A stretch of DNA of 64,000 nt from Candidatus Omnitrophica bacterium UBA6233 (GCA_002440965.1 DJWJ01000026.1:23439-87438), one strand, 5' to 3'. Positions 4,076 to 31,100 are shown, numbered from the stretch's first letter. Notes: generated by a model not told the origin, from the letters alone. Numbers and translations are program-made.

Positions 4076-6421
4076 TTATCGCCAAAGTTTTTGATACGTA
4101 TAATATGCCTTGCGCAAATGCCTTAAGAAAGGACTATCCTTGCCATCTCCCTGCCCGCAAAGCCCTAACCATTCTTCATGCATAAAACCATCAGGAAATG
4201 GGCCGGCCCATAAACCTTTGGTATCATGGATAGAAGGTTCATACGCCTTCCACCATTCATCGAGCCACTCAAAAACCACTCCGCCGATTGCGGTTCCCGC
4301 TCCTGATCTAAAAGCCATATTATCTTCGATATCCTCCCAAGAAGCCTTATGGTAGACGGCTTGCGCTTCTTCCGACTCTTCAATAGTCTTTCCTTCGGCA
4401 TAAGCCGGACAACCAAACTCGGTAATAAACGCCGGCTTATCCGCTTCCTCTCTTACACTTTTCCAGAAACGGCCAAAACCGTAATTACCGCGGTAAGCAT
4501 TGGTGCCGAATATATCTATATCGGGAGTATTTTTGCCGAATTTATCCAAAAATAAAATATCTCCGCTGCAAATTGCCACCGGATGATCCGGATCGATAGA
4601 CTTTATTATCCGGGCCACTTCATTGGCGAACCTAAAAAATGCATCCGGCTCGGTGTTAGCGTTACAGGCATAACCATAGACGTTCTCGTTGCCCAAAAGC
4701 CAGAATAATATGAATGGTTCATCCTTATATTCGTTAACCATTTGTTTTACCGATTCAATCATATTCTTCTTTTGCTCTTCGTTGTTATAATCGGTGCCCG
4801 GATTCCACGCCGCTCCTGAACCAATCGCGTATTTGCCGAGGAAATCCCCCATTATCACCCGAATCCCGTAAGTCTTATACATATCCCGTAAAACTTCTTT
4901 ATCTATCTTCAATGGATGATGGTAAAGCCTTATCGTATTAACTCCCATATCCCTCATCAGCTTAAAATCGCCTACAGGGGCCTTCTTGGTATCCGTATCT
5001 AAATAAGAATCGTAGGGGCCATCGGCCTTGCCGTTATGATTGAAATCATCCAGCATCCAGCTGGTCTGCGTGCCTTCATCCGGAGACTGCCCTACCTTAG
5101 TCGGAGAATAAGTGATACCTTTGATTATATAAGGCTTGCCCTCTACCATAAGCTGCCAATCTCCGTTAGCATATTGCGCCGCGTAGACTTTCCCGTTGCC
5201 GGATTTTTTCCTGATTTCCGAAGATTCGGGTTTGGTTTTTGCGATTAATTTATCTAAAAGCCCGACTTTGACAAACTTCCCGGGGCTCACCATCGCCACA
5301 TCGTTGGAAACATCGTTATCATAACCGTTAATTATTTTAATATCCGCGCCTTCAAGCCTGTATCCGATTTGCGGATTGTTACGCAAAATGTAATTTATCT
5401 TGGCGAGCGCGGCTTGGCCCACATACCAGGGCGTATGCCAATAGGTCCAGCCATAGCTAGCCGGAAAATGCACGACTATGGCATAATAGCATTTCAACGC
5501 ATGTTTTGTTAAGCCTGATTTTTCCAGCAACAGGGCTGTATAAAATAATTTTACGCCTTGGGGTTCGTTGGAAGTAGCCCATTTTAAAAACGCCGCCTCT
5601 AAATCCGGCGAATGCGAGAAATCCCATAAATCTCCATCGAGCCGCTTTTCTTTTTGCGCCTTTTTGAATTCCGGATCCCACCTGACTGAAGCCGTATTAG
5701 GGTATATCCCCTCTCCGACCGCGGCAATCAAACCCTCCTGATCAGCCGCTACATACTTGTAATTTTTGGTTCCGGTATCGATAAACTCTCCGTATTTTTC
5801 ATAATTGACAAGGTCTTCGGTTCCTGGGTCATACAAAACGATTTTCGTGGGAAGCTGGCTGACTTTCTTTTTTTGCTCAATTTCAATCGAACCGGTCTCA
5901 ATCTTTTTCAGGCTCTGCTCGCTGGCCAGTTTTAGCGACCAGAACCACCCTCGCGGATCCCAGGCCTGGGCAAACGGATATTTATTAACTATCAATTTGA
6001 ATATTTTCTTGGCTTCCCCGGACTTGTCCTGGCGCATTAAGGACTCTGCCTGAATAAAATAGGCGGTTGCCACATCATTTAAAATTTGCACGTCTTCAAT
6101 TTCATTCTTGGCCTTAGGAAGCGCTTTCAAACCTGCCTCCTGCCTATCCGCTTCATCTTTATATAAATCAATCAACTGTTGGGTATATTTAAAGGTAGCT
6201 TCCACATCCCTCTTGCCGTGACTAGCCCAGGATTTATTAATCAATTCCCCGGAGGACGGCTTGTCTTCTGCATATGAATGACAAAGGTCAAAACTCAAAT
6301 GACAAAATAAATTCAAAATTAAAATGACAAAGGTCAAAACAAATGTTTTGACCTTGGAAATTTGACATTTGCCTGCCTGCCGGACAGGCAGGGATTTATT
6401 TTGAATTTTGGATTTTGTCAT
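4076..6421 (-). CDS. Secreted two-domain glycoside hydrolase: conserved leader, unknown N-domain, C-terminal clan GH-A catalytic domain
   Basis: The leader is MTKSKIQNKSLPVRQAGKCQISKVKTFVLTFVILILNLFCHLSFDLCHSYA|ED. The C-terminal half has KPYIIKGITYSP, LLGNENVYGY (NE) and FITEFGCPAY (EFG, GH72-like FFSEYGCN context), plus GGVVFEWLDEWWK. Confidence 0.7.
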   Translation of the reverse strand: MTKSKIQNKSLPVRQAGKCQISKVKTFVLTFVILILNLFCHLSFDLCHSYAEDKPSSGELINKSWASHGKRDVEATFKYTQQLIDLYKDEADRQEAGLKALPKAKNEIEDVQILNDVATAYFIQAESLMRQDKSGEAKKIFKLIVNKYPFAQAWDPRGWFWSLKLASEQSLKKIETGSIEIEQKKKVSQLPTKIVLYDPGTEDLVNYEKYGEFIDTGTKNYKYVAADQEGLIAAVGEGIYPNTASVRWDPEFKKAQKEKRLDGDLWDFSHSPDLEAAFLKWATSNEPQGVKLFYTALLLEKSGLTKHALKCYYAIVVHFPASYGWTYWHTPWYVGQAALAKINYILRNNPQIGYRLEGADIKIINGYDNDVSNDVAMVSPGKFVKVGLLDKLIAKTKPESSEIRKKSGNGKVYAAQYANGDWQLMVEGKPYIIKGITYSPTKVGQSPDEGTQTSWMLDDFNHNGKADGPYDSYLDTDTKKAPVGDFKLMRDMGVNTIRLYHHPLKIDKEVLRDMYKTYGIRVIMGDFLGKYAIGSGAAWNPGTDYNNEEQKKNMIESVKQMVNEYKDEPFILFWLLGNENVYGYACNANTEPDAFFRFANEVARIIKSIDPDHPVAICSGDILFLDKFGKNTPDIDIFGTNAYRGNYGFGRFWKSVREEADKPAFITEFGCPAYAEGKTIEESEEAQAVYHKASWEDIEDNMAFRSGAGTAIGGVVFEWLDEWWKAYEPSIHDTKGLWAGPFPDGFMHEEWLGLCGQGDGKDSPFLRHLRKAYYTYQKLWR

Positions 6422-6430
6422 TTGTCATTA
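6271..6430 (-). repeat. Leader cassette repeat, copy B; spans the upstream gene's stop, the start codon and the signal peptide of the 4076..6421 GH; contains GC-rich hairpin 6376-6398
   Basis: On the minus strand: TAATGACAAATGACAAAATCCAAAATTCAAAATAAATCCCTGCCTGTCCGGCAGGCAGGCAAATGTCAAATTTCCAAGGTCAAAACATTTGTTTTGACC…CATTCATATGCAGAAGAC. The stem is cctgcctg/caggcagg (8 bp, loop ccgga) and it encodes LPVRQAGK. Confidence 0.8.
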
Positions 6431-7276: not shown

Positions 7277-7280
7277 TTTT

Positions 7281-8153: not shown

Positions 8154-8174
8154 ATTTATTACTTAAATCCGAAG

Positions 8175-8320
8175 ACCGGAGCCCAAAATTCAAAGTTCAA
8201 AGCTCAAAATTCAAAATAGATCTAAATGACAAATATCCAATGACAAAACTTTAGTTTTAGATTTTGACATTTGGTTTTGGGATTTATTTTGGATTTTGAA
8301 TTTTGTCATTTGTCATTACA
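8175..8320 (-). repeat. Leader cassette repeat, copy C (degenerate, non-genic, between the SBP and permease genes)
   Basis: On the minus strand: TGTAATGACAAATGACAAAATTCAAAATCCAAAATAAATCCCAAAACCAAATGTCAAAATCTAAAACTAAAGTTTTGTCATTGGATATTTGTCATTTAGATCTATTTTGAATTTTGAGCTTTGAACTTTGAATTTTGG. It contains a 31-codon remnant ORF MTKFKIQNKSQNQMSKSKTKVLSLDICHLDLF* that is homologous to the MTKSKIQNKS…LSFDLCH leader. Confidence 0.7.
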
Positions 8321-8322
8321 AG

Positions 8323-9631: not shown

Positions 9632-9692
9632 ATCTGTCCTCCTATAATATAGTCATTTCCGGCTATTTTCTTATCTAAAGGCGGAATATTAA

Positions 9693-9721
9693 AATTTAAC
9701 ATAAGTTACTGGAAGGGTCAA
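9693..9721 (-). promoter_or_regulatory. Candidate sigma70-type promoter (TTGACC-N17-TAAATT) upstream of the SBP/permease genes
   Basis: Read on the minus strand: TTGACC (9721..9716), 17 nt, TAAATT (9698..9693), in the 115-nt gap between the PilZ stop and the SBP start. Sequence match only. Confidence 0.25.
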
Positions 9722-10101: not shown

Positions 10102-13100
10102 CTACGGCTTTATTATATTCTTATTCTGTTTTTTTTCAACTTTTACCTTATTATTTTTCCCTTCGGCCAGGTTTCTCCATAACTGCTTGACTACATAATA
10201 ACTCTTCCTGGGAATGCGTTTATTCAAGCCGTTCTCCGTCTCTTCGGACACTGCCACAATCCCAAACCATTCCTCATTCATATTTTTATTGTATTTAGCT
10301 CTTATATCATGGTAGTAACTTCCGTTGGACCAGTTCGATTCGGTATTATGAGCCTTCCACCCGTCGCTGTTATTACATTCCTGGGCGGATTCATTATGCT
10401 TCCACCATTCATCTGTCCATTCAAACATTATCCCGCCTAAACAATTGCCCATGCCTTCTTTACTGCCGGCTAAATTTTCATAAATCTGACGCCACTGCAT
10501 CTCCAGGAAATACGCCTGCATATTCTGGTCTTCTTTGTTTAAATAGGCGTCATACGCGTCAGCGCCAAACTCTGCCACCAGAATCGGCTTATCAAGATCG
10601 GCCTTTACAGATTTGAATAAATTCCCGAAGGCCTTACCACGATAAATCATACAGGCGATTAAGTCAACGTCTTTTGTTACGGCCGCAGCCAAAGCTAGAT
10701 TCGTAATTTCACAATTACCTAAGGCTACCGGATGGTTAGGGTCTATTTTATGAATCTCTTTGGCCACTTCATTGACAAAAGAATAGTAAATCCTGGCGCG
10801 CATCTCGATTTGTTTCGAAGGATTCGGTTCTTTGTCGATTCCGCTGGTGCACCAAGGCCTAAATTGTCCGGAGAAAGAACGGTTATTTTCATTACCCAAA
10901 ATCCACATTAAGACTCCCGGTTCATCCTTATACCGATTAACCATTTCTAAAACTTCCCTTTTGATTTTTTCCCGGAAATCCTTAGCATTATACGCGGAGC
11001 AAGGCCCATCCCAGAGCCCCAAATCGTGGCCTAAAATAGTGCGGATACCATAAAGCTTGAAGAAATCCCTGATTACCTGCTTAACTGCCTGCGGATTCTG
11101 CCCAACCGTATAAATTCTGCCTGTATTCAAGCCCATATCTTGCATCAATTTTCCGTCGGTAATCCAAGGCTTACCCGGGTCAGACCACCAGTCATAATCA
11201 TAGTTCTGACCGATAGGTATAGGATTATAACAAACACCTTTAACAATATATGGCTTACGTTCGACTATCAACTGGTGATAGCTGTCTTTGGACTTATTGA
11301 TATAAACCTCGGGCTGAGGAACAGGAGAAATCTGCATTATAGCCATCAAAATAAGGAAAGCGAATAAAACCAAACAAAGCTTTCCTATCTTCTTAACTAT
11401 CCATTTTAATGGACAAAACAAATAACCGGAGACAAGAGCGGCTACGCAAACCAACGGTTTCAACTTCAAGGTAAGATTTCGTAATGCCAGCTTCGCATAT
11501 TCCCAAACAAGAGAATAAGGACGTTCGAATATTCTGGCCTGGGCTGCGATTGCTTCCGGGTCGCTGGAGAATTTTTCGTGGAAGGAGATTTGCGCGACTA
11601 TGAATCTTATTTCTTGAGGAGAAAATCCTAATTTGGCGAGCAGCTGTTCAGTTTCTTTTTTTCGGGCTTTATTCCAGGTTTTATTGGTAGCGATAGGATA
11701 ATCCAATATCGCGGCGTGCTCATCTTCGGTTAAATCTTGGATCAATTTTGCTAATCCTGTTCTTCCTTGCGGAGGCGCCTTAAGTTTACCTGAATAAATA
11801 AGATACCTTACTGCCGCTATCCTGAATAAAGCATTACCAAATTCATTGAACCGCAAAGAAATTCCCCGATGATCATAATAATCAAATTCGGCCTCATAAC
11901 AATCGCGGGCGGTGATAGCGTGCCCGTTCTGCCTGGATAGATTAATAGCGAATAATTTGGCTGCTCTGTATAAAGCAGGCGCTCCCCGCTTGATTCCGCC
12001 CTTATACCTTTCTATCGCCATTTTAGCCAGCCCGGGCGTAGCATATTTAGGAAGAGTCGCTTTCCCTATCGGCATAAAAGCTGCGAATTCTAATTTATCC
12101 CGGCTACCCTGGCCATTCTTATATTCCAACCCATATTCCTGGGAAATCTTTCCTGTTTTCTCCACTAAAAACGCGATCTTTTTTTCGTAAGCCATACTAT
12201 GAAAAGTATCGGCATTTTCTATAATACAATCTTTTAAGGCTTCTAAAGCTTTCTTGATTTTTTTGTCTTTTATAATAGCCAAGGAATAAAAATCTAAACA
12301 GGCCATGAAGAAAATGGCCAAGTCTGTCTTGTGCATCTTTAACCGGTTGTGCAATATTAAACTCCATACTTTCTTTTCTTTTTCCAGAAACCGTATATTT
12401 GGATTACCGTTTTCCCATAGTTTATATTCGATTAATAAACTCTGAAAAAGGGAAGATTCTCTACTATCTAATTCAATACCAAAGAATTTGGCCGTCTTGC
12501 GCAAAAACTGGCTTTTGTTTTCTCTTGTGTTCAATACCGCTTCTAATGCAAATCCGGGCGTAGGATATTTATAGACTATCCCTTTACCAAAAGGAACAAA
12601 AGCAGCTATTTCAAGTTTATCTTTTTCGCCATTGCCGTTGTTATAATTTAAATTATACCTTTGAGACAGCCTGCTTACCTCTGCTATCAACAAGGTTGCC
12701 TTTTTTTCTCTACGCAACTGTTTAAAGAAATGCCTTTTTTGGTACAGGAAAATAACTAATCCCCTGACAGCTTTATGTGTAACAACATCGCTGATGATTG
12801 TATTATCAACTAGCTTAACCCAGATTATCCATTGCGCGGCAATGCCGCCTTTGACTTTATTTAACTTATAAGAATAAAATACAGCTGATAATTCCTTAAT
12901 TTGAGCGATAATACCGGCATCCAAATGCGATTTTTCCCACGCCTTGTATTCGTTAACGGCATTGGTAAAACGCGCGCGCAGGCTTTCGGTAATTCTTTTA
13001 GATAGCTTTATACCAAAAGCATTAGCCCTCATAAGCAGAAGCGGATATTTCTTCTTTATTTGTCCTTGATCATGCATAAGCGCCTTTTCCAGTTCTCTTT

Positions 13101-16100
13101 TCACAATGCCCAGGGTGGGATATTTAGGAAAAACACCGCAGCCCATAGGCGTTAAAGCCGCAAATTCCAGCTTATCTCTTTCGCCTAACGCGCCATTATT
13201 ACCATACCCTAGACCATACTCTTCAGATAATTTATCCGCTTTTATCATTAAAACTCTTGTCCTGTATTCATAAGACATTGACTGAATATTACCTTTCTCT
13301 TTTTCCACATAATCCTTCAATGCCCACAACGCCCTTTTAGTCTGCGCGTCTTTAATCAAAGTTAAACCCTGGATATCCAACCATACCGATATGTAGGCGA
13401 CCGCATCTTTTCCTTTCTTATCTAACCTGTTACTCCTTAATAGTTCCCATAGCTTCTTTTCTTTCGCGATCAGATCTGCATCCTTTTGGGCGCTTTCCCA
13501 GTTGTTGTATTTGACCAGTATTATCTTGTACAGAAACCGGCACCCCTCGGTCAACCTGATGTTGAATGTCTTGGCTGCCCTGTAAAGCATCTGATCCCGG
13601 GCTCCGGATATCCAACTCTCTATTGCTAATCCGGGAGTATGGTATCTTGCGACTTTACCATACAACATTGGAGGCAAAGCCGCGAATTCCAGCTTATCTC
13701 TTTCTCCATTGCCGCAAGCATAATCCAAGCCGTAGCGCTTCGCTAACTCTTCGGCTTCCTTGGCCAAAAATCTTGCCTTGCCCTTGCGGCCTAATTTCAG
13801 GAAATATTCCTTGTCCAGGGATAAGGAAAAAATCAGTCTTTCAACCGCTTTCCTGGTAAGATAGCTGGAAATGGCCAGCTGGCTAAACAGCTTCATCCAT
13901 ACTATCCAGGGATAAATCGGATTTTTTGCATGAAAGAATTCCGTAAAGTTATTGCGCCGGTAGATATCCCAAATCTTTTCGGCCTGGCAGCGTAAATCCA
14001 GGGCTTCATTATCCTTATTATTATGCCTATACTCATCCACAGCTTTTTGATAGGAAGGCGGATTGGGAATGGATTTATTTAATAAGAAAAACTTGCTGGT
14101 TGTCTTGCTTGACCTGATAACAAACATGCTGCTGAAAAATCCGATAAATTTCCTGTCATCGCTTATTTTTCTCCTGACAGCTCCTAATACAGCCCTGCCG
14201 AATCTACTTTCATAGCCTCTCTTGAGCACCGATTCTTCAACATACTGTGCAACTTCACGGGAAAAATCAGCATTCGAGAATATAACCAATAATGCTGTTG
14301 TTAAACGAGATGTACACTCTTTTTTGGATTTCTCGGATAGAATATCTAGAATTACTTTAAACACATCTTCTTTTTTAGTTATGGTATTACCCACCCTATT
14401 CGCTATCGGTTTTTGATATTTTTGTTGGCCCGCTATCAACCTTAACCTCTTCAAAGATTTTTCTTCAATCTGCCTGACTCTTTCTTTTGTCAGACATAAT
14501 AAATCGCCGATTTTTTCAAGGGTCATTCTTCCGTTATCGAAAGAGAACAAGCCGTAACGCAGTATCAACACTATCCTCTCATCATCCTCTAATTTTTCCA
14601 ACATAACGCCTACGGCTTCCTTCAATATTGCCCTGCGGGTATTCTCCTGAGGAGAAGCAAACGTATTTTGTTCGATGAAACTTCCCTGGCTATCTTCGCC
14701 TTCCGAGCTGATTGGAGCATCCAATGATACAGGGTCGCGAATCTCAAGTAGCTTTTTGATTTTTTCTACAGGCAAGCTCATCCGCTGAGCCAGTTCTTCA
14801 GGAGCAGGTTCTCTTCTATATTCCTGTACGAACTTCTGGGAAATCTTCTCTAATTTATATTTTTTCTCCAACATATAAACCGGCGCCCGTATCATATGAT
14901 TCTTCTCCGAAAGTGCTCGGGTAATTGCCTGGCGTGTCCACCAAGAAGCATAAGTGGAGAACTTATTGCCTTTCTTATAATCAAATTTTTCGATAGCCGG
15001 GAACAATCCTAATCTTCCGTAGCCGAATAAATCATCGAATGTCATCCCGCAGCCAGGGTATTTTTTGATAATATCACCCACCAGCCCAAGATTACACATT
15101 ACCAGGCAGCCAGTAATGGTTTTTGTCTCTTCGGGGGCCTTTACCGCGTGAAGAGCTTTAAATAACTCAACCTCTTCTTCTCTGCTCAGGACGTAACGGA
15201 AATTTTTAAATCTAAACTGGGCCAATATTCTCCTAGCTAAGCCTAAGCCATCCTCTTTAATATTCTTAAACAGGACTTTTGCTAACCTCTCTGCAGCCCT
15301 TACGTTTTCTTTTTTATTAATTAAATGCCCGTGCTCATGCTCAAACAGTTCTATTAAAATGGCCTCTTGGTTTGCTTGGATAAGTTTGACTATTAATTCA
15401 AGGGGAATGATAATCTGGGAATTATAAAGGCAGGCGGCTATGAATCTTTCTATGCTATCATACAAAAGTAAGCCCGGAGGGCCTTTTGACCTGACATCCG
15501 AATCAGCAAGAAATAAATAAACATTCTCTTTATTGAGCCAGCGGATTAACTGGGGAGTCAAAGCCAACAACGCCTTTTTATCCTGAGGTAAATCCTTATA
15601 GCGAACAAGACGATTCTCTTTCTGTGCCTTGGAGATGACTTTCTTCGTCTGCTTCTTGGCTTTTTTATCCATAGCGCCTTCTTCATAAATTCCCAACCCG
15701 CAGGCAGAGACATCGGGATCTTCTTCTAACAACTCTTCAATTTTTGTCGTTTCCCGTCCTGAAGCAAACCAGGCAATGCCCACAGGATTAGGCAACTGCA
15801 ACAGCGTAAGCCGCTTTTCTTTAAGCGCAGAAACAACGGCCCGGGTTGAAACGGACACGATTAAGAATGCTGAAAATATTGAAAGGAATAGCATCGCAGT
15901 AAAAAGATTGTTGTAAGAAACAAAGGCACATATAAATAAAGTTATCCCGGAGAAACTGATAATGAAAGGTATTAATGCGCGGCCACGATGATCCGTTAAC
16001 CGGTTCGGGCCAGCTTCCTGAAACGCGCGGCTAAAGGCGCTTTCCGGGCCTCTATTCAACGCTATATCTTTAATTCGCCGGGCCACTCCTTCGGTAAATC

Positions 16101-19100
16101 CTTCGTCGGATAAAACTAACCGCAATGCGCTGGCTAGCCTGCCAAAAACTACGCTATTAGCCTTTTGATTCAAAATATCCACAATCTTTCTCAATACGGC
16201 CTCTCTATCGGCTAGAACATTCTCCGGAATCTCAACAATAGGTTTATTTTCTTTAATGGAGGCCTTGAATATCCTTTTTGACTTCTTGATTGCCGCCTCC
16301 TCTATCTGCCTAATTCTTTCCTCGCTTAAACACAGAAAATTCCCTATTTCTTTACGCGTCTTTGTTTCGCCAGAAGCGCTATATAATCCGTAACGCAAAA
16401 CCAATATTACCCGCTGGTTATCACTTAACTGTGAGAGTAATGTCCTTGTATTTTCTTTTAATATATACCGGTTCGCATTTACTCTGGGAGAAACGAATTT
16501 GTTTTGTTCAATTAAATCTAATAGGCTGTCTTCCCCTGCACCAAATGGAGAATCCAGGGAAATGGGGTCACAAGTTATAATGAGATTTTTAATAGTCTCT
16601 TCGGAAAAATCGGTAATTTCGGCTAACTCTTCCTGCGTAGGATCTCTGCCGAATTCCTGGGTAAATTTCTCAGAAATTAAGCGTAATTTAGATTGCTTCT
16701 TCTGCATATACATCGACACCTGCATCTTATGGGATTCCTTCCTGGACGCTCGGGTAATCGACTGGTATATCCACCAACTGGCATAAGTTATAAACCTATA
16801 ACCTTTTTTATAGTCATATGTTTTAGTAGCCCGCAATAACCCGAGATATCCTTCGCTAACGAATTCTTTTGTTCCTCTCCCACATTTTTTAGCTGTATCA
16901 ATAATAAATCCTAAATTGCACCTTAGTAGGCAATCGAGAATATCTTTTCTTTCGGAAGAACTGATCCCGTTCTCCAGGGCTTTGAACAATTCGATTTCTT
17001 CCTCTTGATTCAAGAGATACCCGCCGCCACATTTCAATTCTTCCAATATTCTTTTAGCCAGATGCCAGCCGTCCTCTTTGATAACGCTCAATAACTCTCT
17101 TGCTAATTCCTCCCCTTCGCCTGTGTCTTCCCGGCCGCCCAGAAGATGCCTCTTCTCGTGTTCAAAGAGTCTTATTAAAAGACTCTCCTGGCCTGCTTGA
17201 ATAAGTTTTGCGATTAATTCAAAGGGGATATAAATGGCGGAGTCGTAAGCGCAGGCGAGTAAAAATCTATCTTTATTTTCATACCAAAGGAATCCCGGAG
17301 GACCTTTTGACATTATCTTAGATGCAGGGAGGACTAGCTGGATATTTTCTTGGTTTAACCAATTCAATAGTTGAGGAGTAAGGACCAATTCCTGTCTTTT
17401 ATCCTGCGGCAAATCCTGATAGCGGAAGATGCGATTCTCTCTTAAGGCCTTGAAGATGATTTTTTCTGTTTCCTTTACCCCCTCCGCGTCCATCGCGCCG
17501 TCGGAAGTATAAATTCCCAACCCGCAGGCAGAATGGTCAGAAGAATTATGGATATCATGATATTGTGTTAGCTGCAAAAGGAAGTTCTTAAATTTTGGAC
17601 TGAAATTGTCAGATAATCCCAATGCCCACCTTAACACAATATCAAAAATATATTCTTCTCTGGTATTCCCTAAAATTGTTTCGGCAGGAGGATTAATCAT
17701 AAAAGTAGCGTGGTCGCAAGTAAGGATGCGGCCGTCGACACTGATGAATAAAAATATTTTATCCGGGCGGCGATGAGAGAAAATATCATCCATACTCAAT
17801 GGTTCCGCTTCCGGCAAAGACTTTGCCCCACCCTGAGCGATAAGATGATTTATATGAAACATTCTTTCGCCCCATATTATATATCTTTCATATAAGCCGT
17901 ATTTTTTAAGAATACGGAACCGGTTTTCCGCACGAGATAACCTTATATTATATGCAGCTCGCAGCCTTCCTTCGCGCCACCTATAACTTTCCTCAATGGC
18001 CTTGATAACCTTTACCATATCTTTGTCTCTTTTTTTCGCCTCTTTTTCATGCCACTGGTCAAGGGAAAAAACTAACTCAACATTATCAGGAATTTTGCCT
18101 AAAAATTTGTCCATCTCTTCATGGTCTTCTGGGAAAGATAAACCATTGGTATCTATATGAACCTCGCCGATGTGCTTGCTGGCGGACCAAAGAATTTCCC
18201 AGAAATCAGCCGAAGGCTGGTTATCCGTATAATTTTTCTTTTTGTAGGCAAAAGGCTCTCCGCCGACAAAATACACACTGGGAAATCCATCTAACTGCCG
18301 GATTATCCTTTTAATCTGATCCATAGGCAAGTCTACGTTAGGATCTTTCTCAATAACATCCTTGGCAATGCAAAATCTACATCTATATGGGCAGCGATGC
18401 GTTATCATAATATTGATATTCGAGTCTAATTTCGGAAACTCCGTCTTTAGGAGATCGAATAAAATCGCTACTCTTTGAGGGGATTTATTTATCATCTGGG
18501 CGGCCTGCTTTCCAACATCGGCTAAGACGCCGGCAGTGAGTTTTTGGATATTCCGGTCTTCGGCTTTTAATGCCTGGATAGCCGCCCGCAGAGTTCCATC
18601 CGAAAGTTTAACTACCCATGGTTTATCTGTCTGGCTTAAAGATTTAACTATCAATCTATAAGTGCGACTGATTTTTACGAAGTCCATAAGATAGGTAGAA
18701 TAAGGGGATCGCGCGCTGTCTTCGATAAACTCAGACTTAGCGATAATATAGTAGATATTTTCTTGCCGGTTTGCAGGTTGCCATCCTAATTTTGCTAAAA
18801 CTTCTATTGCGTCTTTCCAGCGATAAAGAAATCCGCTTTTTAATACTCCGAAAAGAAATTCTTCCAAAGCCCTAAGAAAAGGCTCGACTGCAGATGGGCC
18901 GATTTTAATCAAAGTTTCTATTATGCAATTACAAACACTCCAATTTTCTTGTCCGAATCCAGAGGCGGCTTTAAGCTCATTCTCAACAACAAGGTCATTT
19001 AAGGCTTTAATAAGGCAAGGAATTATGGGTGGGCCGATTTTCACTAATGTGTCCATTGTAAGATGACGGAAATTCCAATCATCATCGTTTAATGCTCCAA

Positions 19101-22100
19101 TAAGATAAAGAACCGCAGGCTCACCGATTCTAACTAAATCCTCCCATCTTTCTTTAGCAATAAAGTAAAGGATTTCTTCTTCCTGACTTACAGGCTGCCA
19201 TCCTAATTTTTCCAAAGCTTTTGCTGCGCATGCACGGACATAATGGCTTTTATCTTCCAAAGCTTTAATAATGACCTGCGTTGCTCTTATATCGCCAATC
19301 TCACCCAAAGTCTTTACTATAGGCATACGAACCATGGCATTATATTCACGATTAAATCTTTCAATCAAAGGTACAACTGCCCCTTTGTATCCAAAGTAAC
19401 CGAGGCTACTAGCTGCGCCGGCACGAACAAACTCATCGGGATGCCTTAATTTATATACATATTTTCCAAATTCTAACTCAAAGGACAGAACTTCTTGCGC
19501 TAAACTTTCTCCTTCTTCGACATTCTCTATGCCGATGGCTAAATCCCTATCTTCGTGTTCAAATACTCGGATTAAAAGCTCTTCAGGGAGTGAGATTATC
19601 AAGTCAAAAGTAAAAATATCCGGACAGGCTACTAAAAATCTCCTGGAATGCTCGTACCAAAGCATGCCCGGAGGACTTCTTGAATTTATACCTGACTCAG
19701 AAAGGACAATATAAGGATTGCGTTCCTCTAACCATCTTGCTACTCGGGGTGTTACTGCTAACTGCTCTTTTTTGTCTTGAGGTAAGTCTTGATAGCGTAG
19801 GAGGCGCTTTTCTTTTTTAGCTTTAAACAAAGCTTCCTTTTTCTTCTGCTGGGCTTTTTTATCAATTTTCCCTTCTTTTGTGTAAATTCCCAAACCGCAG
19901 GCATAGACATCGAAATCTCCTCCTGCTTTCTCCTTAACCACCAATGGTTCTGCCAAAGTATCTAAAGCTTCGACGTTCTTCTTTAAAATCAGTAAATTAT
20001 CCTCGATTTCCTTGTATAAGATGACTTCGGGATATCTTATCTCCTCCAAGGGGATAAAGAGATCTGGGTTTTTTATCTTTTGAAGTATAGCTGCTGTCTC
20101 AATCAAGGCTCCATTAAAACTAGCTATCGTATTTAGCAACGCAACCTTCTCCTGGACAACCCTATTATTCTTATTTCGAAGAGATGCTTCAAGAATAAAT
20201 CGCTCTTTCCTGAGATGCTTAAGATAAGCAAATATCTGTTCTTCTATTATTGGATTCAAACCCTCATCCTTGTTCCCCATGTGGTATTCCAATAACAGTA
20301 ATATTTTTTTCATCTCCCGAGAAAAATATTTTGCCATATCCAATGTTTTCTTTCGACTCTCTTGTAATCGATATGACACTAAGATACTGACTGTGCCTAA
20401 AAATGTTAAAAGACTTATCGCCATGTCAGCTAAACAACTAACCAGATTTCCCGCCATAAAGATCTCTTTTGTAAAAAGAAACACGGGAGAAAGCATTATA
20501 CCTGTGATAATCGACCCATTAACCAAAGCCGCCAGCGCCCGCTTGGGATCTCTTTCGATATACCGCATAAAACCAGGACGATAACCTGCTATAATAATCG
20601 TCAACATAACAGATGTAACAAACGAAGCGAGAGCAAAAGCAATAGCCGACACGGATAAAATCGTAAACTTAACGTATTCCCGCGGACAGACGATGCTTAT
20701 AAAAAAAGATAACAGAAGAGACAAGGCTGCTATAATTATTGATGTTTTTACTCCGCAAAACTGCGTTCTTTTGTTCAATCGGACTTTCCAAACAGACGCT
20801 TTCAATCTCATCCTTACCTTTGATATTATGAATATGGCTAATAGAGGTAAACTGAAGATACTAAAAATATAAACTTTAGAGATGCGGTTTTTTAATAAAA
20901 CTTTGGCTATAGTCTTACGAGTATCTTCATTCTTTTCGCTGAAGAGACTCTTAACAAGAGAAAGAAATGCCCGGAAGCTTATATTCTTTTTCCCGCCTAA
21001 GCCCCTGGCGGCGCAGATGCGGACATAATAATCTTTGTCTTTTAATAATACGCTGGCCAGGCACTCTTCTGTTTTAAGGCCGTTAAAATTACTTAGCGCA
21101 TTGACAGCGGATGCGCGCACGCGCTGATCCGGATGGTTAAGCGCTGCTTCGCTTATGAATTTGGCGCTTTGCGCGGTTCCAATCTTCCCGAGAATGCGGA
21201 TTGCGGTATCGACAGACTGCCACCTTTTGTCCGATAACAAAACGTCCTCAAGGAAACTGACGGCCGAAGGCTCCATGCTACCAAGGGTTTTTTCAGCCAT
21301 AAAGCTAAGGCTATGATACCTGGAATCCAAGTCGTAATACTTATACAATGACAATTCTAAAAGAAGCCATGCCGCCGGATCGCCTTTCTTCTTTAAAGCG
21401 CCCCAATCCCGCCTAGCCAGAAGATAAAGAATCCCCTGCCATTCGCTCTCAGGCTGCCATCCCCAATTAGCAAGCGCCTCTGCCGCAGCAAAACTGACCC
21501 AAGGATCCATATCCCTAAGCGCATCCGCCAATAGAGCCCTGGATTCAGGAAGATCAACCCTGCTTAATTCGCGCACTATGGCCAAACGCTCCTGCCAATT
21601 TTTATTCCCGAATCCTTTTTCCAGGATAATATCGGCAATCTTATTTCCACCTTTACCGGCTAGAATTCCCTGTGTGTCTAAACGAGCTATCAGTTTCTTG
21701 GCCCTGTAAAGGACGATCTGCTCTCTTGCCGATGGCGATATAGCATTCGTAGTCTCAGGGCAATACGTGGCAGAAATAGAGAAAAACACACCGGCCGCAA
21801 AAATAACTCTCAAGATAATCTTTTTTGAATGAAACAGGTTATCTTTTATTTTTAAAAGGGCATTTTTTAGACGACGCATAGCGTAGGACAAAATCTCGGC
21901 ATAACCGGCCCTAAAAAGAAACAAACCATATCCCCAGGAGGGAAGAGTAACAATCATTTCTTCTTTACCGAAAGTAACCAGGACACTCTTCGAGCAGAGT
22001 TTCGCTATAAATCTGTTGTTTATTTTTCCCGGCACTCCGGAGTTGCCTTTATAATAATCAAGAACAGTATTGAAGTTTATTTTAATAATTACTGGATAAA

Positions 22101-25100
22101 GCGAGTGATTAACAAGGACTATGGCGTCTTCTCCGGGCAGGTGCCGCACAAAAGGCACTAACCCTGTATCTTTAATATCAACTTTTCTCCCGCAGAATTC
22201 TATTTCTTCCAAATATGCGCTGAAGAATCTTCCCTTACGAAAAACAGGCCTGGATATAAATTTAATCAACTCTGTGAGCGGCCTAACCGCCAGGGAATTA
22301 TCTTTTAAAACATCCGGGTAGGAAAACTGATAAATACCCGCGTCAGGATTCTTCATCATTATGCGCGCTCCCGGAGGAATTCCCATACCGAAAAGCTGAC
22401 GCAAAGGGATAAGAACATACCCGGGGACAGCATAAGAAATCATTGCCGCAGCCATAAGGCGTTCCATGCCGCCAAAAGCGGCCATTGCCGGAGGCTCATC
22501 GTGAGTTTCGACAAAATGAACGCAGCGGCTTAAGAACTCTTCCTTATGCTCACCCATAAATAGATATCCCCGCAAAGAAGCAATATTCCCTTCTCTAAGC
22601 AAATCGTAGAGATATTTATCATAAGGAATCATCCCGCATTTCTGCAGCGTATCATGCGTCCCATAACCATAAGTTTCAGCCAGCATCAACATATTCGGAT
22701 ATTCCTTGCGGGCATCCTCCCAGAATTCATTAGGCATTGATTTTTGGAATTCTTCCCAGCTTATCCCTAAAGGCTCAACCCAGGTCTTCCAGGTATGCTC
22801 TTTTAACCCCAGGTGCGCCAGATCCGCCCTGAAACCGCCGTTATGGGTAAGATAAGCGATCTTGGCCATTATCTCCTTGATCATGAATCTGCGCGCCCTT
22901 TCATCAAAATAATTCACCTGGGCCAGGTTTATCATCGGCGGGTTCTGTTCAAAGAAAGCGTTTTCCCGGGCATGCATAAAAATAAGCCCGGATGTTTTAT
23001 CCTGTGAAAATGAGTGGTATTCATTTTCTATTAAGAATTTCAACTGCTCATCGCAAAGCCCCCGCGACAAGTTGGGAAAATATCTACGCGCCAATTGAAC
23101 GAATCTCTGGTAATCACCGCTTATTGTTAACTCCGGAGCTTCCTTGATTAATGGTGAATCGGCGGCAATATGGTTAGTTACAAAATCAACGACGACCCTT
23201 ATATTTTTGTGTTCCAAGTTTTCGGCCACCGCCCGGAAATCTTTTTCATTACCGGCGACTTTCGGATTAATGCCGTATTTATAGACATCGTAGCCGGAAG
23301 GGCCCCTCTTCAATGTCTCATTATCTTCCTTGTTCCACTTCTGCATCAATTTCCCGGAAAGCTCGCTTTCTTCCCATGACGCTTTAAACCAGATAACTCC
23401 GATACCCATCCCGGAAAGCCAATTCCAAAATCCCGCGGGAACCCTGTCTACGGTTCCATAAGTGTTACTTAAAGCGCGGCCGTCAATTTCAGTAATTATC
23501 TGCGTGGATTCTTCGGGGGGCCTGCGGAATTCGTTGCTCAAGACAGCGATGGTAGATATTCTTTCCATCTCACGGATATAACTTTTATCAATCTCCGCGA
23601 TTTCTTTTAATTGCTCCACGCCCAGGAGAAACGCCCCTAATTCTTTTCTGTGGTCTCTGTAATAAATGTGGGCATTATGACAAGCGCGTTTATGCGCTTC
23701 TCCCGGAGGGCAATGTAATTCCTTTAATTCTCCTGATTCATGGAGACAGATATCGGGAAGCAATATTTCCTGCAGGCGAGAGTCTTCGATAAGTAACCAG
23801 TGGATAACAAACACCAAAGTATTTGCGTATCTTTTGATTTCAAAAAACTTCCCGTTCTTTCTGCCAATAAGTTCAACTTGTATTTTTATCTGCGGCGGAG
23901 CATGGATTAAAATACCTTCCAGCACTTTTTCTACCTGACTAAGTAAACTCTCTTGCTCCATTTCCGTAAGTTTCCCGCCTATTAAAAATATTCTCAACCC
24001 GGCTTCCCCGTTCTTCTTTTCCAAAAATACCTCCGGCTTCCTAACTTCTTGTTTTGCTGTCCCATGATAACCGCGAGGATCTTCTTCATTTGCGCTCCCT
24101 AGCCAAAAATTAGTAGAGCCGGCTACGGGCTTGGATTGTTCGGCTAAAAGTTGATTAATTATATTCAGTATTTTTCCGTAAGGGTCGTTGCCTTCAAGTA
24201 TACCCTGGCTGAATTTTCTGTATAATTCCTTATATTTAGGATCATAAAATACTTTGGCGGTCTCCTGCCTTAAATCCCTGTAATCGGTTTCTTCAAGCTG
24301 ATCCGGAGTTTGATTCCGGATAGGATAATAATTAAAACTGCAAAGTATCCGCTCAAGTTCTAGAGCTTCGTCGTCAGCCAGGATCTTTTCCTTGTTAAAC
24401 TTTATGATCTTATCTATAAGGTTAACGAACAACCTCGCTTTCCATTCCCGCGTTTCGTATAAAAATACCTTTCCAGCGGATATAGCTTCGGTTAAGCTCA
24501 TATCGCCGGTAGTAGCGACCGGTAAATCTGATATGACAACGAGTTTACTAAAAAGTTCGTGCGGTAAGATACCCGAAGGCGCGATAGTCACCTCTGAACC
24601 TCTGCGTGAGGTTGCCATACTACCGGAACCCATATATCCAAATCCTCTTTCCATTGCCTCCTTGCGCAAATACTCTAGCTCCTCTACCCCATTGGCTGAA
24701 ACGAATATCAATTTATTCTTCTTTGCGAATTCCCTGCTTTCTCTTTCGGAAAAACTCAACATCTGCAGATATTCAACAGCCGAATTATAGACATAAACCA
24801 GGCCGATAAGTGCCTGGCTAAAGTCATTTAAACGAAGCGGGCTGATTTCTTGAATGCCGCTTACCGCAAAGATATCAGAAATAACCTTTTTCCTTTCCGC
24901 AAGCTTTTCTTGAGAATTTAAATTATCGTAATAGGCTTTATACTTAAGAATAGCCGATTCAACAAAGAACCCAATGGCTTCTTTACCAAATCCGGCCTTA
25001 AGCATCAATGCTGAAGGCGACTTGTTCTTCTTAACAGAAGAGGATATTCTCTTAACAGGCGGCACATAATCATATTCTTCCAGGGAGATTTTAATATTCG

Positions 25101-28100
25101 GGGTTCCTCTCAATGCTTCAAAAACGCTTTCTTCCCACCCTTCACTTACAGAAATAAGGATATCCTCTTTTTTTAGGTCTTTTTTGAGAGCCTCTATTTC
25201 CTGAAAAGCTATTTCAACCCCGCTGTCGGCAAGGAATCTGCCAAAATTAATCTTTATAACTTCGTTAAATACGGCCTCATCTTCGGGCCTTCGTTTTACA
25301 TTAACTAATTTTAGTTCTACTTCCGGGACCAATTTTTTTAATCCCTTCGCAAAATTGGCCGCTTCTGCCGCATCACCGCATCTGCCAAAATGCCTGAAGA
25401 GAACTATTATCCTCCCTTTTATCCCTGACGAAGGCGGGCCGCAGATTCCATTAGGCTGGACATTTTGAGGCTTAAGGTCTTTAAGTGGAAGGGGAGAATT
25501 TTTATTCAAGGTGTAATTTTTTAAAAGAAGGGTATCGAGCGCTTCCTTTATCAAAACCCACATTTCCGCTTTTCGCGAGCCGATCTCTGCCAAATGCAAC
25601 TGATACACATCCTTAGTCAGCTTCTTTAATTCCAATAACTGTTTTACCTTTTCAGCGTTAAAAGATAATTCGAGTTCCTCGAAAGCCTTCTCCAGTTTTT
25701 CGGCAAGAATAAGCGCGGCGCGGGAATCATCGTCTTGCGGTATATTATTTAATGTCGCGGCGGCTAATCTAAACAGTTTTCTTTGTTCGCCGCGCGATAA
25801 TCTCCGGTTAAAATACTCTCCAAGCTCGCTTAGATAATCATTAACGTTAATATGCGCGGGCAACCGCCGCTTTTGGTGTTTCTTGGTTGCCGGTATGGCC
25901 ATCAAACTGCGGATAAGCGAACTGGTAATTACTTTCGAACAAGCGGCAGCCTTCATTATTGCCTCTATAAAGTCTTCATCCGCGCAGATAATAGAATCAG
26001 TGCCATAGCTCTCGCCATCCAGATGAGTGGACATCCAAAATACCGCCCTGAAATTATCCTCGGCCCTCTCCTTCCTCAAGGCGTCAATAAGCGCGTTCGA
26101 TTTCTGCAAAACAATATGTTCCAGCTGACAAAATTTTGCCTGTTCAACACAAACCTCTTGGCCTTTGTAAGGATATCTTTTGGAATCCCGCAGCAACTCT
26201 TCCACACTGGAATCTTTAACGCAGTATTCATCCCTGCCAAGCTTATTAATCCAGGCGGCAATATCTTTTATCCGGGCAATTTTAATTAATCTGTCCAACA
26301 TCAGGCTGTCTTCTCTAACGGCAATCTTGGATTTAAAAGTAAAACCTTGCAGGCTGTCCGCGTCTGCTACCACATCCTCATCCGAAATAATAGCGGCCGC
26401 CAGCAAATAGGCTATAGCCGGAGAAACCCTAAAATTGTATTTAAAATACCTCTGCGCAAGGATAGCGCAAGTGCAGGATACCGAATCTTTAATTTCAGAA
26501 TTTTTAGGCGCAGGAATATCGTTTAATTTAGGATGGTGGTCTATGATCGAGATTACCTCAAAAGCCCTGAGCTCTTCTCTTTCAACTCCGCTATAGTCAA
26601 ATGAGGCAAATTTTATTTTCCCTCTTGCTTCATCGGGCATCCGGGCAATCTTTTTGATCGGTTCTTCGATGTTTTGATAATAAATCATATCATTTTCTTT
26701 AATACCAACGTCCCCCAAAACATCCCTTGTCCCCTCATCTAAGCTATCATTCATTACCGGGAAATACTGAACCTTTTTTTCTTCCCCGGGGAGAATATTC
26801 TTAATTTTGGTAAAAAGATGCGCGCCCAAGAATGCCGAGATGCCGCCATCTTTTTCCTGAGTCCGATGCGGCAAGCAAATAACTATTTCTTCATTTATCT
26901 CTTCTCCCTTAGCAATCTTTTCCAAGTAGCCCGTGAGTTTCTGTAAGTTCTGCTCTTTTGAAAACTTTTGCAAATCGGAATCGAAATGCTCCGGAATAAT
27001 ACTTTTTTTGCTTAATAGTTCATTTTTATTTTTGCCTGAATCATCAGGATTTAAGGGTTTTAGGCCATTTATAAATTCATCCAAACCCTTGGCTATAGAG
27101 TTCTTGAATCTTTCAGCCGATTCCACAAAATCACGGTCATATTCAAGGAGCCGCTTTCCTTCCTGGACCTGGCTTAAGAAAATGGTTTTATTTTCTTCGC
27201 ATTTCTTATGCAGCTCCACAGGTTTGGCATATAATTTCAGGAATACTCCAAAATCATCTGCTCCCAAATCATTTTTAGCTGCCTGATAATACCCATACAC
27301 CTCTAAAAACATCAGGAATGACTGCCAACCGATTGCCGCAGACAAAAGATTAGGATAATCTTTAAGGATATTATAAACAGGCCCGCTGATGTAGATAGCC
27401 CCCCGCTTAAGAGAATGACGAATATAACAACGGGAACCGTTCTTGCCCTGCGCAAGAAAAGGATAGGCCTGGCCTGTTATCTCCAGAGCGACTATGTCGA
27501 GATTCCTTTCATCGAGGAACTTATTATAGGCTTCCTTAATCTCTTCCGGAGCCCATCCGTTTAAATACCCAAAGGCAGCCAAAGCGGAAATAATGCCCGG
27601 GGCAAGCTTTTTTATTTCCCGGATGGTTTTTTCAATACGGCTTCTCTCTTTAAACCTTCTGTCCTCACACCCCTTTTCGCTGGAGGAAAACTTAATATCC
27701 TTATCTCCCCACAATAAATACATACCTCTGCTTTTTCGAACCGACTCTTTTAAAATCTGTTCGGGTATCTCATCGACAGGCAAAAGCACTTTCTTTATCA
27801 GTCCTGCGACATCCGAGGAAAAGATATAGGTAAGGATAGATTTCATTTTAAAATAAAAATATTTCGGACGGACAGTCCCTTTTATCGCCGCTAAAAGGGA
27901 TTCATTGCTGGCCTCAACATAAAACTTCTTTTCTTTTTCTTCCCGCGATAAATTAAACTTAAGGGAATTTACGTCACTGATTTTTATAATCTTTATGTGC
28001 GACTTCCAGCGATTCAACAGAACATCCCGGTCAAAAGGCTCATTCTCCGTATCAATAGTTTTAACTGTTATATTCGCTACAGGAAGAACCCAGCTGATAA

Positions 28101-31100
28101 GCCTGAATAAACTTACTACCATAATATTGAGCAGAGGCCGTTCCTTAATATATTCTAATGTCTTTTTCAAAATTTTAAGTTGCTCGGTATTAACTGCGTA
28201 AGGGGCTCTTACATCCATTAAAGCCAAAGCAATACAATTGCTTTCCCAGGGCTTAAGCCCGGCCTCATCAAAAAGAGACAAAGGAAGGTTTCCCTCGGGG
28301 TGAATACTTCCATCAATCAATTCCCATTTTCTATATTCTCCTTTATACTTACCTATCCATATTACCGGATTAAATATTACGGGAAGCGAAATACTGGCTC
28401 TTATGGCTAAGTCTATGGGCATATCCGGGCAATTCTCTGCGTTTAGCTTCAAGAGCCTCTTAGTGAGGTAATCTACAGCTGTAACTGTCAGATTAAACGG
28501 GTAATTGGCTTCTTTAAGCTCACCGAAAGTGGGGATAAAACCAAACCTGTCTATTATAAGGCTTCTAATCCACTCTAATACGGCGTCTCCTTTAGATATT
28601 CCTCCGCGGGAAAGAAGATTCCAAGTGAAACCAATACTGCCAACGGGAGGGTTGGAGAATCCGGATGCGTCCGTATCGTATGCTTTTTCTTTGGCGGCCC
28701 TGGCATCATAACCAAGCATCAAGAATAAAGCGACAATTGCCCCTATTGACGTCGCTCCCAGATTAGTAAAACAATATCCTTCTTTTTCTATTGCCTCTAT
28801 AATTTGGTAATAACGTAAACCGTCGATGCCGCCTCCGGGAATTATACCGTAATCAATCAGCTTCTTGCTTTGCCGGTATTTTTCAATCTCCGGGATTACC
28901 TTTCGAATCTGCTCTTTTCTCCATTCTTTACATTCAATATCTGGTCCTTTGGTATCCGGCGATACTGCGGTTTTCTCCTTGTGTCTTTCCTTAAAATCGG
29001 AGATCTCGGCAGCCAGGCCGTGCCAAAAACAAAAGATGGCAAAGGCAAGCATAGGAATAAAGAAAAAAACTACCGTCAGGAATAAACAGGTGTTTTCACT
29101 TACGTTAGAACCCGGCCCCATGGGCCAACCGGCAGTTAGAATACCTGTTAAGAAAAAGGTTGTTAGAGATACAACAGGCAGGAATAAACGGAAAATGCGG
29201 CTGCGGATTCTCGCTAAAATACTGCCGGATTTACCGGCTGGCGGCTGGTTGCGCGCTTTATCCGGTTGAACGGAATTTTGTGTTTTGGAAGCGCTTTCGT
29301 TTTCCGGAAAAATAAGAATATTCAATTCGGTTTCTTTATCAAAGAAATACGCGCGTTTCATATCAAATACTACGTCTATCTCTGTGTCTTTCTTGGGCCG
29401 GCCTTTTGTAAAGACTGCCTTAAAATTAATGCCATCAACAGAAAGCCCAACCTCTGCCTTTGAACCTAACTCTTCAGTTATATCTACTTTTACATGCACC
29501 GCATTATATGGACTATATAATCCCTGAACCTGAACATTCTGGGCATATAGCTTATCGTATATATCATTTGGCCTTATGCCAAAAAAGATATCCTTATTAA
29601 CATAGCCGGATATTTGCTCCGCCATTGTATCGTCAATTTTTAGAATAAAATTTTCTCCTGCCTTAAAATAATACCCTTCATTTCGTAAAATCTTCCCTTC
29701 TATGAAATTCATCGATGGGGAACCGATAAAACCAGCGACAAATTTATTCTTCGGCTTATCATAAACATCCATAGGTTCCCCGATTTGCTGGATAGTGCCG
29801 TCTTTCATCACCATTATCCGCGTGCCCATAGTTAAAGCTTCAATTTGATCATGGGTAACGAAAATAAAGGTGGTCTCTTTGCCTAAACGCTGATGCAGCT
29901 TTTTCAGCTCGGTACGCATCTGGCCGCGCAGCTTAGCGTCTAAATTACTTAAGGGTTCATCAAAAAGAAAAACCAACGGTTTACGCACAATAGTACGACC
30001 GATAGCCACGCGCTGTCTCTCGCCGCCGGAAATATTACGAGGCTTCTTCTCAAGCAGTTCTACGATACCTAAAATCTGGGCTGCTTCCGTAACTTTAGCT
30101 TTAATCAATTCTTTCTTTACTTTTCTCAGCTTTAACCCAAAAGCCATATTCTCAAAAATTGTCATATGGGAATAGAGCGCATAATTTTGGAAAACCAGAG
30201 CAATGTTACGGTCTTTTGCCGGCGTGTCATTAACAAGATTGTTTCTTATATATATTTTCCCTTCGCTTATCTCTTCCAAACCAGCAATCATCCTTAGTGT
30301 AGTAGACTTCCCGCATCCTGACGGCCCGACTATAATAAAAAATTCTCCTTCATCAACCTCAAAATCTATGGATTTAACCGCATAATGCACCGGATCCTTG
30401 CTTCTGCCGGGATAAATTTTACTTAACTTAACGGCTCTCACGCTCTTATTCAAAGCTGAATCGCATTCTTTTACCCTATCGGCCTTTTGATTAGCTTCGG
30501 TTTCTGAATGCGCGAATAATCTGGTTTGGCTAAGTCTTTTTGCTTGATAAACTTTGATTGCTTTATAAATTTTATAGCCCAGATAAATCAGTAGCCCGGC
30601 AGATATAACCACTTTAGCTAAAACGGACAGTCCGCTTAAAAACGGCAAGCCGGCGAACAAGGATACATTGGCCGGAGAAACATTGGCATAACAATCCCGC
30701 ATTTTTTGGTACCGATCATTCAAGGAATTTTTCTTTGCGCCGTAAAATCTAAAAGACGGGGCCCTATCTTTAGAAAATATCCACTCCGGCAGTTCATCCT
30801 GCAGGATTTCTTCTTCCGGCCATAGCGGTATGCTCATCCAATCCATCCCGCTTATATCGATTGCGGCAAACAGCTTCCCTAATCTTCTCTGATGCGCCTG
30901 AGCAAAGAAACGGCCTCTCGCAGCCCAGGCGAGCGGAGCATCGGTTCCCTCTATTGCATGCGGACCCCTCTTACCAGTAAGGTAATCTAAACGTTTCCTG
31001 CTGTTTTTAAGCGGTATTCCTTCCAGAAGAGCATCCATCCATCCGCGAGTCTTTTCCTCGCTTCCCAGCTCTTTAGCGTAATCCAGAATATATTTTCCCA

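Follow-up and report, generated by a model that had tools for sequence, protein, structure and literature searches.

The analysed stretch of 64,000 nucleotides (nt), referred to as the window in the following, originates from Candidatus Omnitrophica bacterium UBA6233 (GCA_002440965.1 DJWJ01000026.1:23439-87438) and contains on its minus strand a giant open reading frame (ORF; 10102..63921 (-)), which encodes at least 17,939 amino acids (aa) counted from the first ATG and whose frame is open to base 64000. The same gene has a length of 18,423 aa in the gene call of the Joint Genome Institute (JGI) on contig Draft_10000140 (metagenome 3300001592, 122 kb), which is 100% identical to the window. 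The first ~484 aa of the giant protein lie outside the window, and all domain scans described here cover the 17,939 aa. An initial annotation, derived from the sequence alone, had placed two sigma-70 units deep inside this ORF and had described the surrounding product as a multi-pass membrane protein. Both statements were borne out: the two units are real, with agreeing coordinates and with Sigma70_r2, r3 and r4 above threshold, and 52 hydropathy windows with a Kyte-Doolittle (KD) value of >1.7 were found along the giant protein, clustered between its domains.

Sigma unit 1 (aa 15635-15885, nt 16267-17019 (-)) and sigma unit 2 (aa 16243-16498, nt 14428-15195 (-)) both contain the Pfam families Sigma70_r2, r3 and r4, and in unit 1 a 1.2-like region precedes regions 2, 3 and 4. 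For unit 2, the Pfam limits are nt 14902-15105 (r2), 14641-14868 (r3) and 14440-14601 (r4), all on the minus strand. The alignment to the three profile models, which had been suggested as a check of the original claim, resulted in matches of both units to all three of them in the right order, with 83 bits for r2, 98 bits for r3 and 94 bits for r4 on two stretches each, compared with gathering cut-offs of 24-25 bits. The motifs FSTYASWWTRQAITRA...IRAPVYM and FITYASWWIYQSITRA are present in the translation of nt 13800-17700 (-). The only curated model whose cut-off was passed is the superfamily model TIGR02937 (98 and 81 bits, cut-off 42.9). Neither region 1.1 (PF03979) nor region 1.2 (PF00140) was detected in the Pfam scan at E<=0.01, and the region-1.2-like stretch LSREEEVELFKAL was recognised by eye only. 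The alignment to the RpoD_Cterm model extends over profile positions 5-232 of 238, hence over its full length. Judged from the sequence, both segments are genuine and complete sigma-70 family units, ranging from a 1.2-like region through sigma 4 and devoid of region 1.1 and of a non-conserved insert.

The duplication exceeds the sigma domain, as aa 15457-16013 align with aa 16065-16613 at 46-50% identity (46% between the two sigma units). In each of the duplicated blocks, the sigma unit is preceded by a module with the motif ACGLGIY, named module A in the following, and is followed by a helical stretch of ~100 aa, the post-sigma module. The latter extends over aa 15886-15981 (15979..16266 (-)) behind unit 1 and over aa 16499-16613 (14083..14427 (-)) behind unit 2, and the end of the copy behind unit 2 is weakly hydrophobic and aligns with the first transmembrane (TM) helix after unit 1. 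Permissive Pfam and NCBIfam scans of the post-sigma module returned only noise, and no relatives were found in a word-indexed protein search. About four repeats of ~175 aa with the motif GE[RK]DKLEFAA follow (aa 16606-17340, 11902..14106 (-)), which are 29-40% identical to each other and match no Pfam family.

The same region with both units is present in a second metagenome assembly (L002) with a nucleotide identity of 99.87%. A distant ortholog, L004 (contig CAYPRG010000001.1, labelled Planctomycetales), contains one cassette of module A, sigma unit, post-sigma module and repeats, which is located between the amylase and the C-terminal glycoside hydrolase (GH) domain, and it has neither the HEAT/radical-SAM block nor unit 1. 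The sigma unit of L004 shares 70% identity with unit 2 and 47% with unit 1, so that unit 2 is considered the conserved ortholog and unit 1 the divergent duplicate. Between the window and L004, unit 2 is conserved to the same degree as the enzymatic modules (amylase 70%, GH 74%). In L005 (Ga0074199_1000173), a 98%-identical strain, ~1,346 aa are deleted in frame (aa ~15985-17330, nt ~11932-15969). Lost with them are the TM hairpin between the units and one copy of module A as well as sigma unit 2 together with the ~175-aa repeats. Repeats and unit 2, both present in L004 and both gone in L005, form a linked cassette. Over the 3,853 codons shared with L005, the ratio of nonsynonymous to synonymous substitution rates (dN/dS) is 0.23. 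Sigma unit 1 is identical in the window and L005 (zero differences), hence no dN/dS is available at the level of the unit. Compared with the window, L004 and L005 document the gain and loss of modules in frame between strains and relatives. By these comparisons, the units are in frame, under selection and conserved across species. In a third lineage, a 6,236-aa fragment (P0130) carries a sigma-like module with 24% identity (E 1e-8) that is followed by a TM helix, and the order of sigma, short module and TM helix is common to unit 1 and P0130.

The highest-scoring curated models for the units are of the RpoD type, and the nearest free-standing relatives are RpoD proteins of Omnitrophota with ~48% identity, which carry regions 1.1 and 1.2 too. 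With RpoD and the group 2 factors, the units share the domain order of sigma 1.2, 2, 3 and 4, and the residues for the -10 element, the -35 element and melting are kept. RpoD differs in being a free protein with region 1.1, whereas the units are embedded ~15,600 residues into a larger protein and are devoid of a non-conserved region; furthermore, DLIQEGN in region 2.2 of RpoD corresponds to DLFGYGR in unit 2. Judging by these relationships, the units go back to a sigma factor of the RpoD-like type (group 1/2), which was fused as cargo into the cytoplasmic C-terminal part of the giant protein and then duplicated in the window strain. Among the ten Omnitrophota RpoD clusters looked up for a stand-alone rpoD, none could be assigned to the metagenome-assembled genome from which the window originates. 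The top 'homolog', an actinobacterial protein of 440 aa (P0001), was rejected, as it consists of a partial sigma (regions 2-3) and a complete sigma in tandem and its architecture is unrelated.

For the comparison of individual residues, 119 RpoD homologs were used, in which 103 columns are conserved to at least 95%; positions are given in E. coli numbering, anchored on W433/W434. Of the 103 columns, 67 are retained in unit 2, 68 in the unit of L004 and 50 in unit 1. Unit 2 retains the -10 and melting residues F427, T429, Y430, W433, W434, Q437, T440 and R441 as well as the -35 residues E585, R586, R588 and Q589, with R584 replaced by K and Y425 by N. Additional changes in unit 1 are R436Y, S428I and R584E. 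Numerous derived substitutions are common to unit 2 and L004 and are therefore old and maintained, which argues against an ongoing decay. Region 2.3/2.4 of the units had been called near-canonical; the term holds for regions 2.3, 2.4 and 4.2 of unit 2 only, but not for region 2.2 and much of unit 1.

A single TM helix had been noted between the two units. A membrane segment is indeed located there, but it is composed of two helices, forming a hairpin (aa 15982-16025, 15847..15978 (-)) that was delimited by hydropathy. The helices extend over aa 15982-16001 and 16006-16025 with KD values of 2.39 and 2.43, are connected by the four-residue loop SYNN and are flanked by the basic stretches TDHRGR and TRAVVSALKEKR. 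No hydrophobic helix was found in aa ~14517-15981, which hold the Radical_SAM domain and sigma unit 1. The hairpin would bring the chain back to the side from which it entered the membrane. After the hairpin follow unit 2, the ~175-aa repeats and a signal-anchor-like helix (aa 17516-17534). Due to the basic flanks of the hairpin (positive-inside rule) and to neighbouring domains of the cytoplasm type such as Radical_SAM, both sigma units are predicted to be cytoplasmic.

Module A has a length of ~165 aa, starts with ...ACGLGIY and ends with ...FEHExxH...EAExLA. The copy before unit 1 (aa 15452-15621, 17059..17568 (-)) carries ACGLGIY close to its N-terminal end together with FEHEKRH, and the copy before unit 2 (aa 16059-16225, 15247..15747 (-)) carries ACGLGIY and FEHEHGH. 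The initial annotation had thus correctly placed one copy before each sigma unit, but a third copy (aa 14663-14819, 19465..19935 (-)) with the degenerate motif FEHEDRD precedes HEAT repeats, and a weak fourth match was obtained at aa 6691-6830 with the hidden Markov model (HMM; independent E-value 7e-4). An exhaustive profile search of 1.84 billion representatives revealed 45 representative proteins with module A, mostly of 1-7 kilo-amino acids (kaa), which look like fragments of giant proteins. In none of the 45 does a sigma domain adjoin module A, one of them having a sigma-like region ~3,600 residues away, and P0121 has one copy in front of a protein-kinase domain. The word-indexed protein search returned nothing for module A. 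The giant protein of the window is itself absent from the matches of both protein searches, the longest match having 7,252 aa; the libraries therefore appear to be devoid of the largest proteins, and the counts of architectures are lower bounds. Module A gave only noise in Pfam and NCBIfam at permissive thresholds and in a profile search against PDB sequences. It constitutes a new family without a Pfam model that recurs in giant proteins. Its proposed function as an anti-sigma module in cis is unlikely, because it is widespread without a sigma factor, is located before a kinase domain or HEAT repeats elsewhere and matches no Pfam family; it rather represents a generic module of giant proteins with a predicted fold of its own.

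A structure of the copy before unit 2 was modelled with AlphaFold2 from an alignment of 31 sequences, resulting in an alpha/beta fold (predicted local distance difference test 91.5, predicted template modelling score 0.86) in which the ACGLG segment forms a beta-strand. No significant match was obtained from any of three fold libraries, the best E being 1.1 in PDB (Foldseek) and 0.11 in BFVD, and the only compact or named matches, all of them non-significant and all of them to zincin proteases, were selecase, BlaR1 (M56), an M48 peptidase and SprT-like proteins. HExxH is present in both sigma-adjacent copies (two of the three main copies), in the form of an HExxH-x11-E motif. With the zincins of the minigluzincin, M48 and M56 type (selecase, BlaR1), the module shares HExxH, a conserved Glu ~12 residues further on in the 'EAExLA' helix and a small alpha/beta fold; of these zincins, BlaR1 is bound to the membrane and acts on a transcription factor, which it controls through cleavage. 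Unlike these zincins, only 11 of 36 members of the module A family have the second His, and no Pfam match is obtained. As a lead, module A may be a minimal zincin-like protease, perhaps cutting in cis. Motifs of the form '...LL..hHExxHL.G..E...', which resemble the C-terminal half of module A, were seen by eye at aa ~4000, 5280, 6790, 7010, 9130, 10080 and 10850 of the giant protein and might represent strongly diverged copies of this junction module; only one of them reaches marginal significance with the HMM (the match at aa 6691-6830). One of the giant fragments with module A (P0124, 3,936 aa) also contains a Peptidase_M50 (site-2 protease, S2P) domain and a pseudouridine synthase domain. 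In other bacteria, the S2P family frees membrane-held regulators of sigma factors.

The giant ORF was searched for signs of separately translated genes. Its frame is free of any stop codon over 53.8 kb. The search for promoter-like sites resulted in 19 sites at an expectation of 21.9 +/- 5.1, and 11 terminator-like sites were found at an expectation of 10.1 +/- 3.2, so that neither class is enriched. No Rfam elements were detected. A convincing internal Shine-Dalgarno (SD) sequence with a start codon was not found before either sigma unit. There are only three weak candidates for such a combination, one of which, ten codons ahead of unit 2 (aa 16233), pairs a TTG with an AGGAG-like motif; as genuine gene starts in the window show little SD signal, this match carries little weight. 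Evidence for a separate translation of the units, named in the initial annotation as a possible refutation, was therefore not obtained, and a single ORF is favoured over separate genes.

Along the giant protein, Pfam domains of the families ROK, APH, HMGL-like with HCS_D2, VWA, AAA_5, NHL and GGDEF were identified, as well as ABC_tran with OB_MalK, Patatin, alpha-amylase, HEAT, Radical_SAM and the two sets of Sigma70_r2/r3/r4. These domains are mutually unrelated and mainly of the cytoplasm type. Giant proteins of Omnitrophota with many TM helices, GGDEF, a pilZ gene downstream and ROK, radical SAM, HEAT and NHL domains have been described (West-Roberts et al. 2023, bioRxiv 10.1101/2023.11.21.568195; bioRxiv 10.64898/2026.06.07.730766). 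The giant gene of the window is a member of these described membrane-anchored multi-enzyme giants ('Archaeovorin', multi-enzyme): it comes from the same phylum, exceeds 10 kaa, encodes many TM helices and a like mix of domains, and it is flanked by glycoside hydrolase genes with pilZ immediately downstream. The other hallmarks of Archaeovorin, a divergent SecA_DEAD domain and/or an N-terminal C39 or S8 peptidase, were not detected in the part of the protein covered by the window (17,939 aa, E<=0.001). Sigma-factor domains are unmentioned in the main texts of bioRxiv 10.1101/2023.11.21.568195 and 10.64898/2026.06.07.730766.

Sigma factors are usually free subunits, which are controlled via separate anti-sigma proteins or short pro-peptides. 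In the case of pro-sigma-K/E of Bacillus, RseA/RseP and RsgI, the sigma factor is inactive at the membrane and is freed by proteolysis. The concept proposed here is the same as for the pro-sigma factors and the systems of regulated intramembrane proteolysis (RIP), but those rely on a short pro-peptide or on a distinct anti-sigma protein as the tether, whereas the sigma unit here is an internal domain of a giant polypeptide. No homolog of SpoIVFB/S2P or SpoIIGA was seen in the giant protein, and cleavage is a proposal here. Covalent fusions are known from ECF (extracytoplasmic function) sigma factors with C-terminal TM extensions, e.g., ECF263 (Casas-Pastor et al., bioRxiv 10.1101/2019.12.11.873521). 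In the ECF263 type, the sigma factor is joined to C-terminal TM helices, similar to the order of sigma, short helical module and TM helix found here. ECF factors, which belong to group 4, are small proteins containing sigma 2 and sigma 4 only, whereas the units described here are RpoD-like with Sigma70_r3 and are flanked by thousands of residues on both sides.

The explanation that is tentatively preferred is that the giant protein holds an alternative sigma module of RpoD descent on the cytoplasmic side of the membrane, and that this module works either once it has been excised or while still in place. Read in this way, the giant protein would keep a dedicated alternative sigma factor at the membrane as an internal part of its own. 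On one route the sigma unit would be cut free, by analogy to pro-sigma-K/E and the RIP-controlled factors, and on the other route promoter DNA and RNA polymerase would come to the membrane-held unit. Regulators of the ToxR type are membrane-bound DNA-binding proteins that act in place, and the cells are very small (~0.2-0.3 µm across); for these reasons, activity in place would be plausible.

Several observations weigh against an active membrane-held sigma module, and most of them bear on a rival that is rather unlikely, yet has to be taken seriously, namely that the units are a pseudo-sigma scaffold whose fold no longer initiates transcription and which holds DNA or RNA polymerase at the membrane, binds another protein or is purely structural. 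The residues Q406, E407 and N409 of region 2.2, conserved to at least 95% among the RpoD homologs, are replaced in unit 1, unit 2 and L004, DLIQEGNxGL having changed to DLFGYGRLGL in unit 2, DLFAYGRLGL in L004 and EFVSEGYLGL in unit 1. Since region 2.2 is the main contact of sigma-70 and sigma-32 with the beta' clamp helices, binding of the units to the latter would be either weakened or re-tuned. H455, which takes part in the recognition of the extended -10 element, is changed to Y or F, and R584 to K or E. Unit 1 deviates at 53 of the 103 highly conserved columns. Tested alone, unit 2 and unit 1 reached 235 and 176 bits with the RpoD_Cterm model (TIGR02393), whose cut-off is 354; the RpoD, RpoS and group-3 cut-offs were all failed by both units, and the PRK models of RpoD scored far under theirs. 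Region 2 of P0130 is plainly degenerate with a lost WW/Y melting motif, and unit 2 is dispensable at the strain level, as L005 exists without it. Beyond the units, the Pfam scans of the giant protein revealed no recognised protease, anti-sigma, S2P or SpoIIGA-like domain. For module A, the idea of a protease is confronted with insignificant fold matches and with a motif that is incomplete in most of the family, HExxH being complete in 11 of 36 members and the Cys being present in 26 of 36. Against the scaffold stands that the residues for flipping and reading the -10 element and the -35 helix-turn-helix residues are kept in unit 2 and L004, and that the module is 70% identical across species; this combination would be hard to explain without selection on promoter recognition. 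A pseudo-sigma, named in the initial annotation as a possible refutation, thus retains its share of probability through the loss of the core-binding residues.

Compared with the membrane-held sigma module, the other explanations have less in their favour. A constitutive polyprotein, in which ordinary proteins are cut apart after translation so that a free sigma factor results and the tether has no regulatory meaning, is improbable. It would account for the joining of normally separate proteins (IPMS-like, ROK, MalK-like ATPase, patatin, amylase, radical SAM, and a GH with a signal-anchor-like helix), for modules that come and go in frame between strains and for the recurrence of module A at cargo boundaries, and cleavage of Omnitrophota giants has been proposed in the literature; yet the giant protein contains no recognised processing protease, no cleavage sites are known, and module A occurs just three or four times in ~18,000 residues and cannot delimit most of the cargo. 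Another reading, for which the chances are judged still smaller, regards the giant gene as an 'operon in one ORF', from which the sigma factor would be freed only on triggering of module A as a new minimal family of zincin-like autoproteases, whose HExxH would be held inactive by the conserved Cys (cysteine switch). If this were true, a predatory nanobacterium would link completion of the giant protein, its membrane insertion or contact with prey directly to a programme of transcription, and a group-1-derived sigma factor would be under control as a domain within a polyprotein. It is very unlikely that the sigma units are genes of their own with translation from internal start codons, or that the ORF is an artefact of assembly or frame. 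Internal initiation in bacteria would be compatible with the sequence, the TTG at aa 16233 being a candidate, but two independent assemblies agree on the stop-free frame, the L004 ortholog and the L005 variant preserve it, the dN/dS of 0.23 spans the junctions, and promoter and terminator enrichment as well as Rfam elements are missing.

No account of the arrangement was found in the searched literature on giant genes, Omnitrophota and sigma factors, in line with the initial annotation, which had not come across one either. Omnitrophota giants as a class and the control of sigma activity at the membrane are already known. What is new is a group-1-like sigma factor with sigma 3 inside a protein of ~18,000 residues, located next to a module of an undescribed family, duplicated and variable between strains. 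If a sigma unit is active, this would represent a new way of controlling transcription initiation, via tethering or via excision from a polyprotein, and would provide an assayable handle on the role and processing of the giant proteins. If the units are pseudo-sigma domains, they would show the re-use of a core transcription domain after its core-binding surface was lost. In either case, it has to be considered that Omnitrophota giants fuse many sorts of otherwise free proteins.

Internal duplication in the giant protein is not limited to the sigma block, as duplications were also found elsewhere. A tandem module of ~240 aa with TM helices (aa 1650-1886 and 1899-2138, nt ~57508-58974) has 67% identity between its copies, and a further pair of repeats (aa 5569-5627 and 6217-6268) reaches up to 84% identity.

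The giant protein ends with the last TM segment (aa 17516-17534) and a C-terminal glycoside-hydrolase-like domain (10105..11376 (-)). The C-terminal ~400 aa are a paralog of the stand-alone genes at 1574..2896 (-) and 4076..6421 (-), both of which are annotated with Glyco_hydro_2_C, and the domain shows an identity of 74% between the window and L004. With the signal-anchor-like helix in front of it, the domain looks as if an entire gene of a secreted enzyme, signal sequence included, had become joined in frame to the giant gene.

The pilZ gene is located directly downstream of the giant ORF, followed by a sugar ABC transporter and glycoside hydrolases. A near-consensus promoter-like site at 10112-10139 (-), consisting of TTGAAA, a spacer of 16 nt and TATAAT (11/12), is the best one in the scanned region. 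It falls within the final codons of the giant ORF, and pilZ starts ~50 nt further downstream. The operon of the sugar ABC transporter (6428-9702 (-)) comprises one substrate-binding protein and two permeases and contains no ATPase gene. A MalK-type ATPase module (ABC_tran with OB_MalK) is present in the giant protein at aa 11183-11454 (nt 29560-30375 (-)), and this embedded module might serve the downstream transporter.

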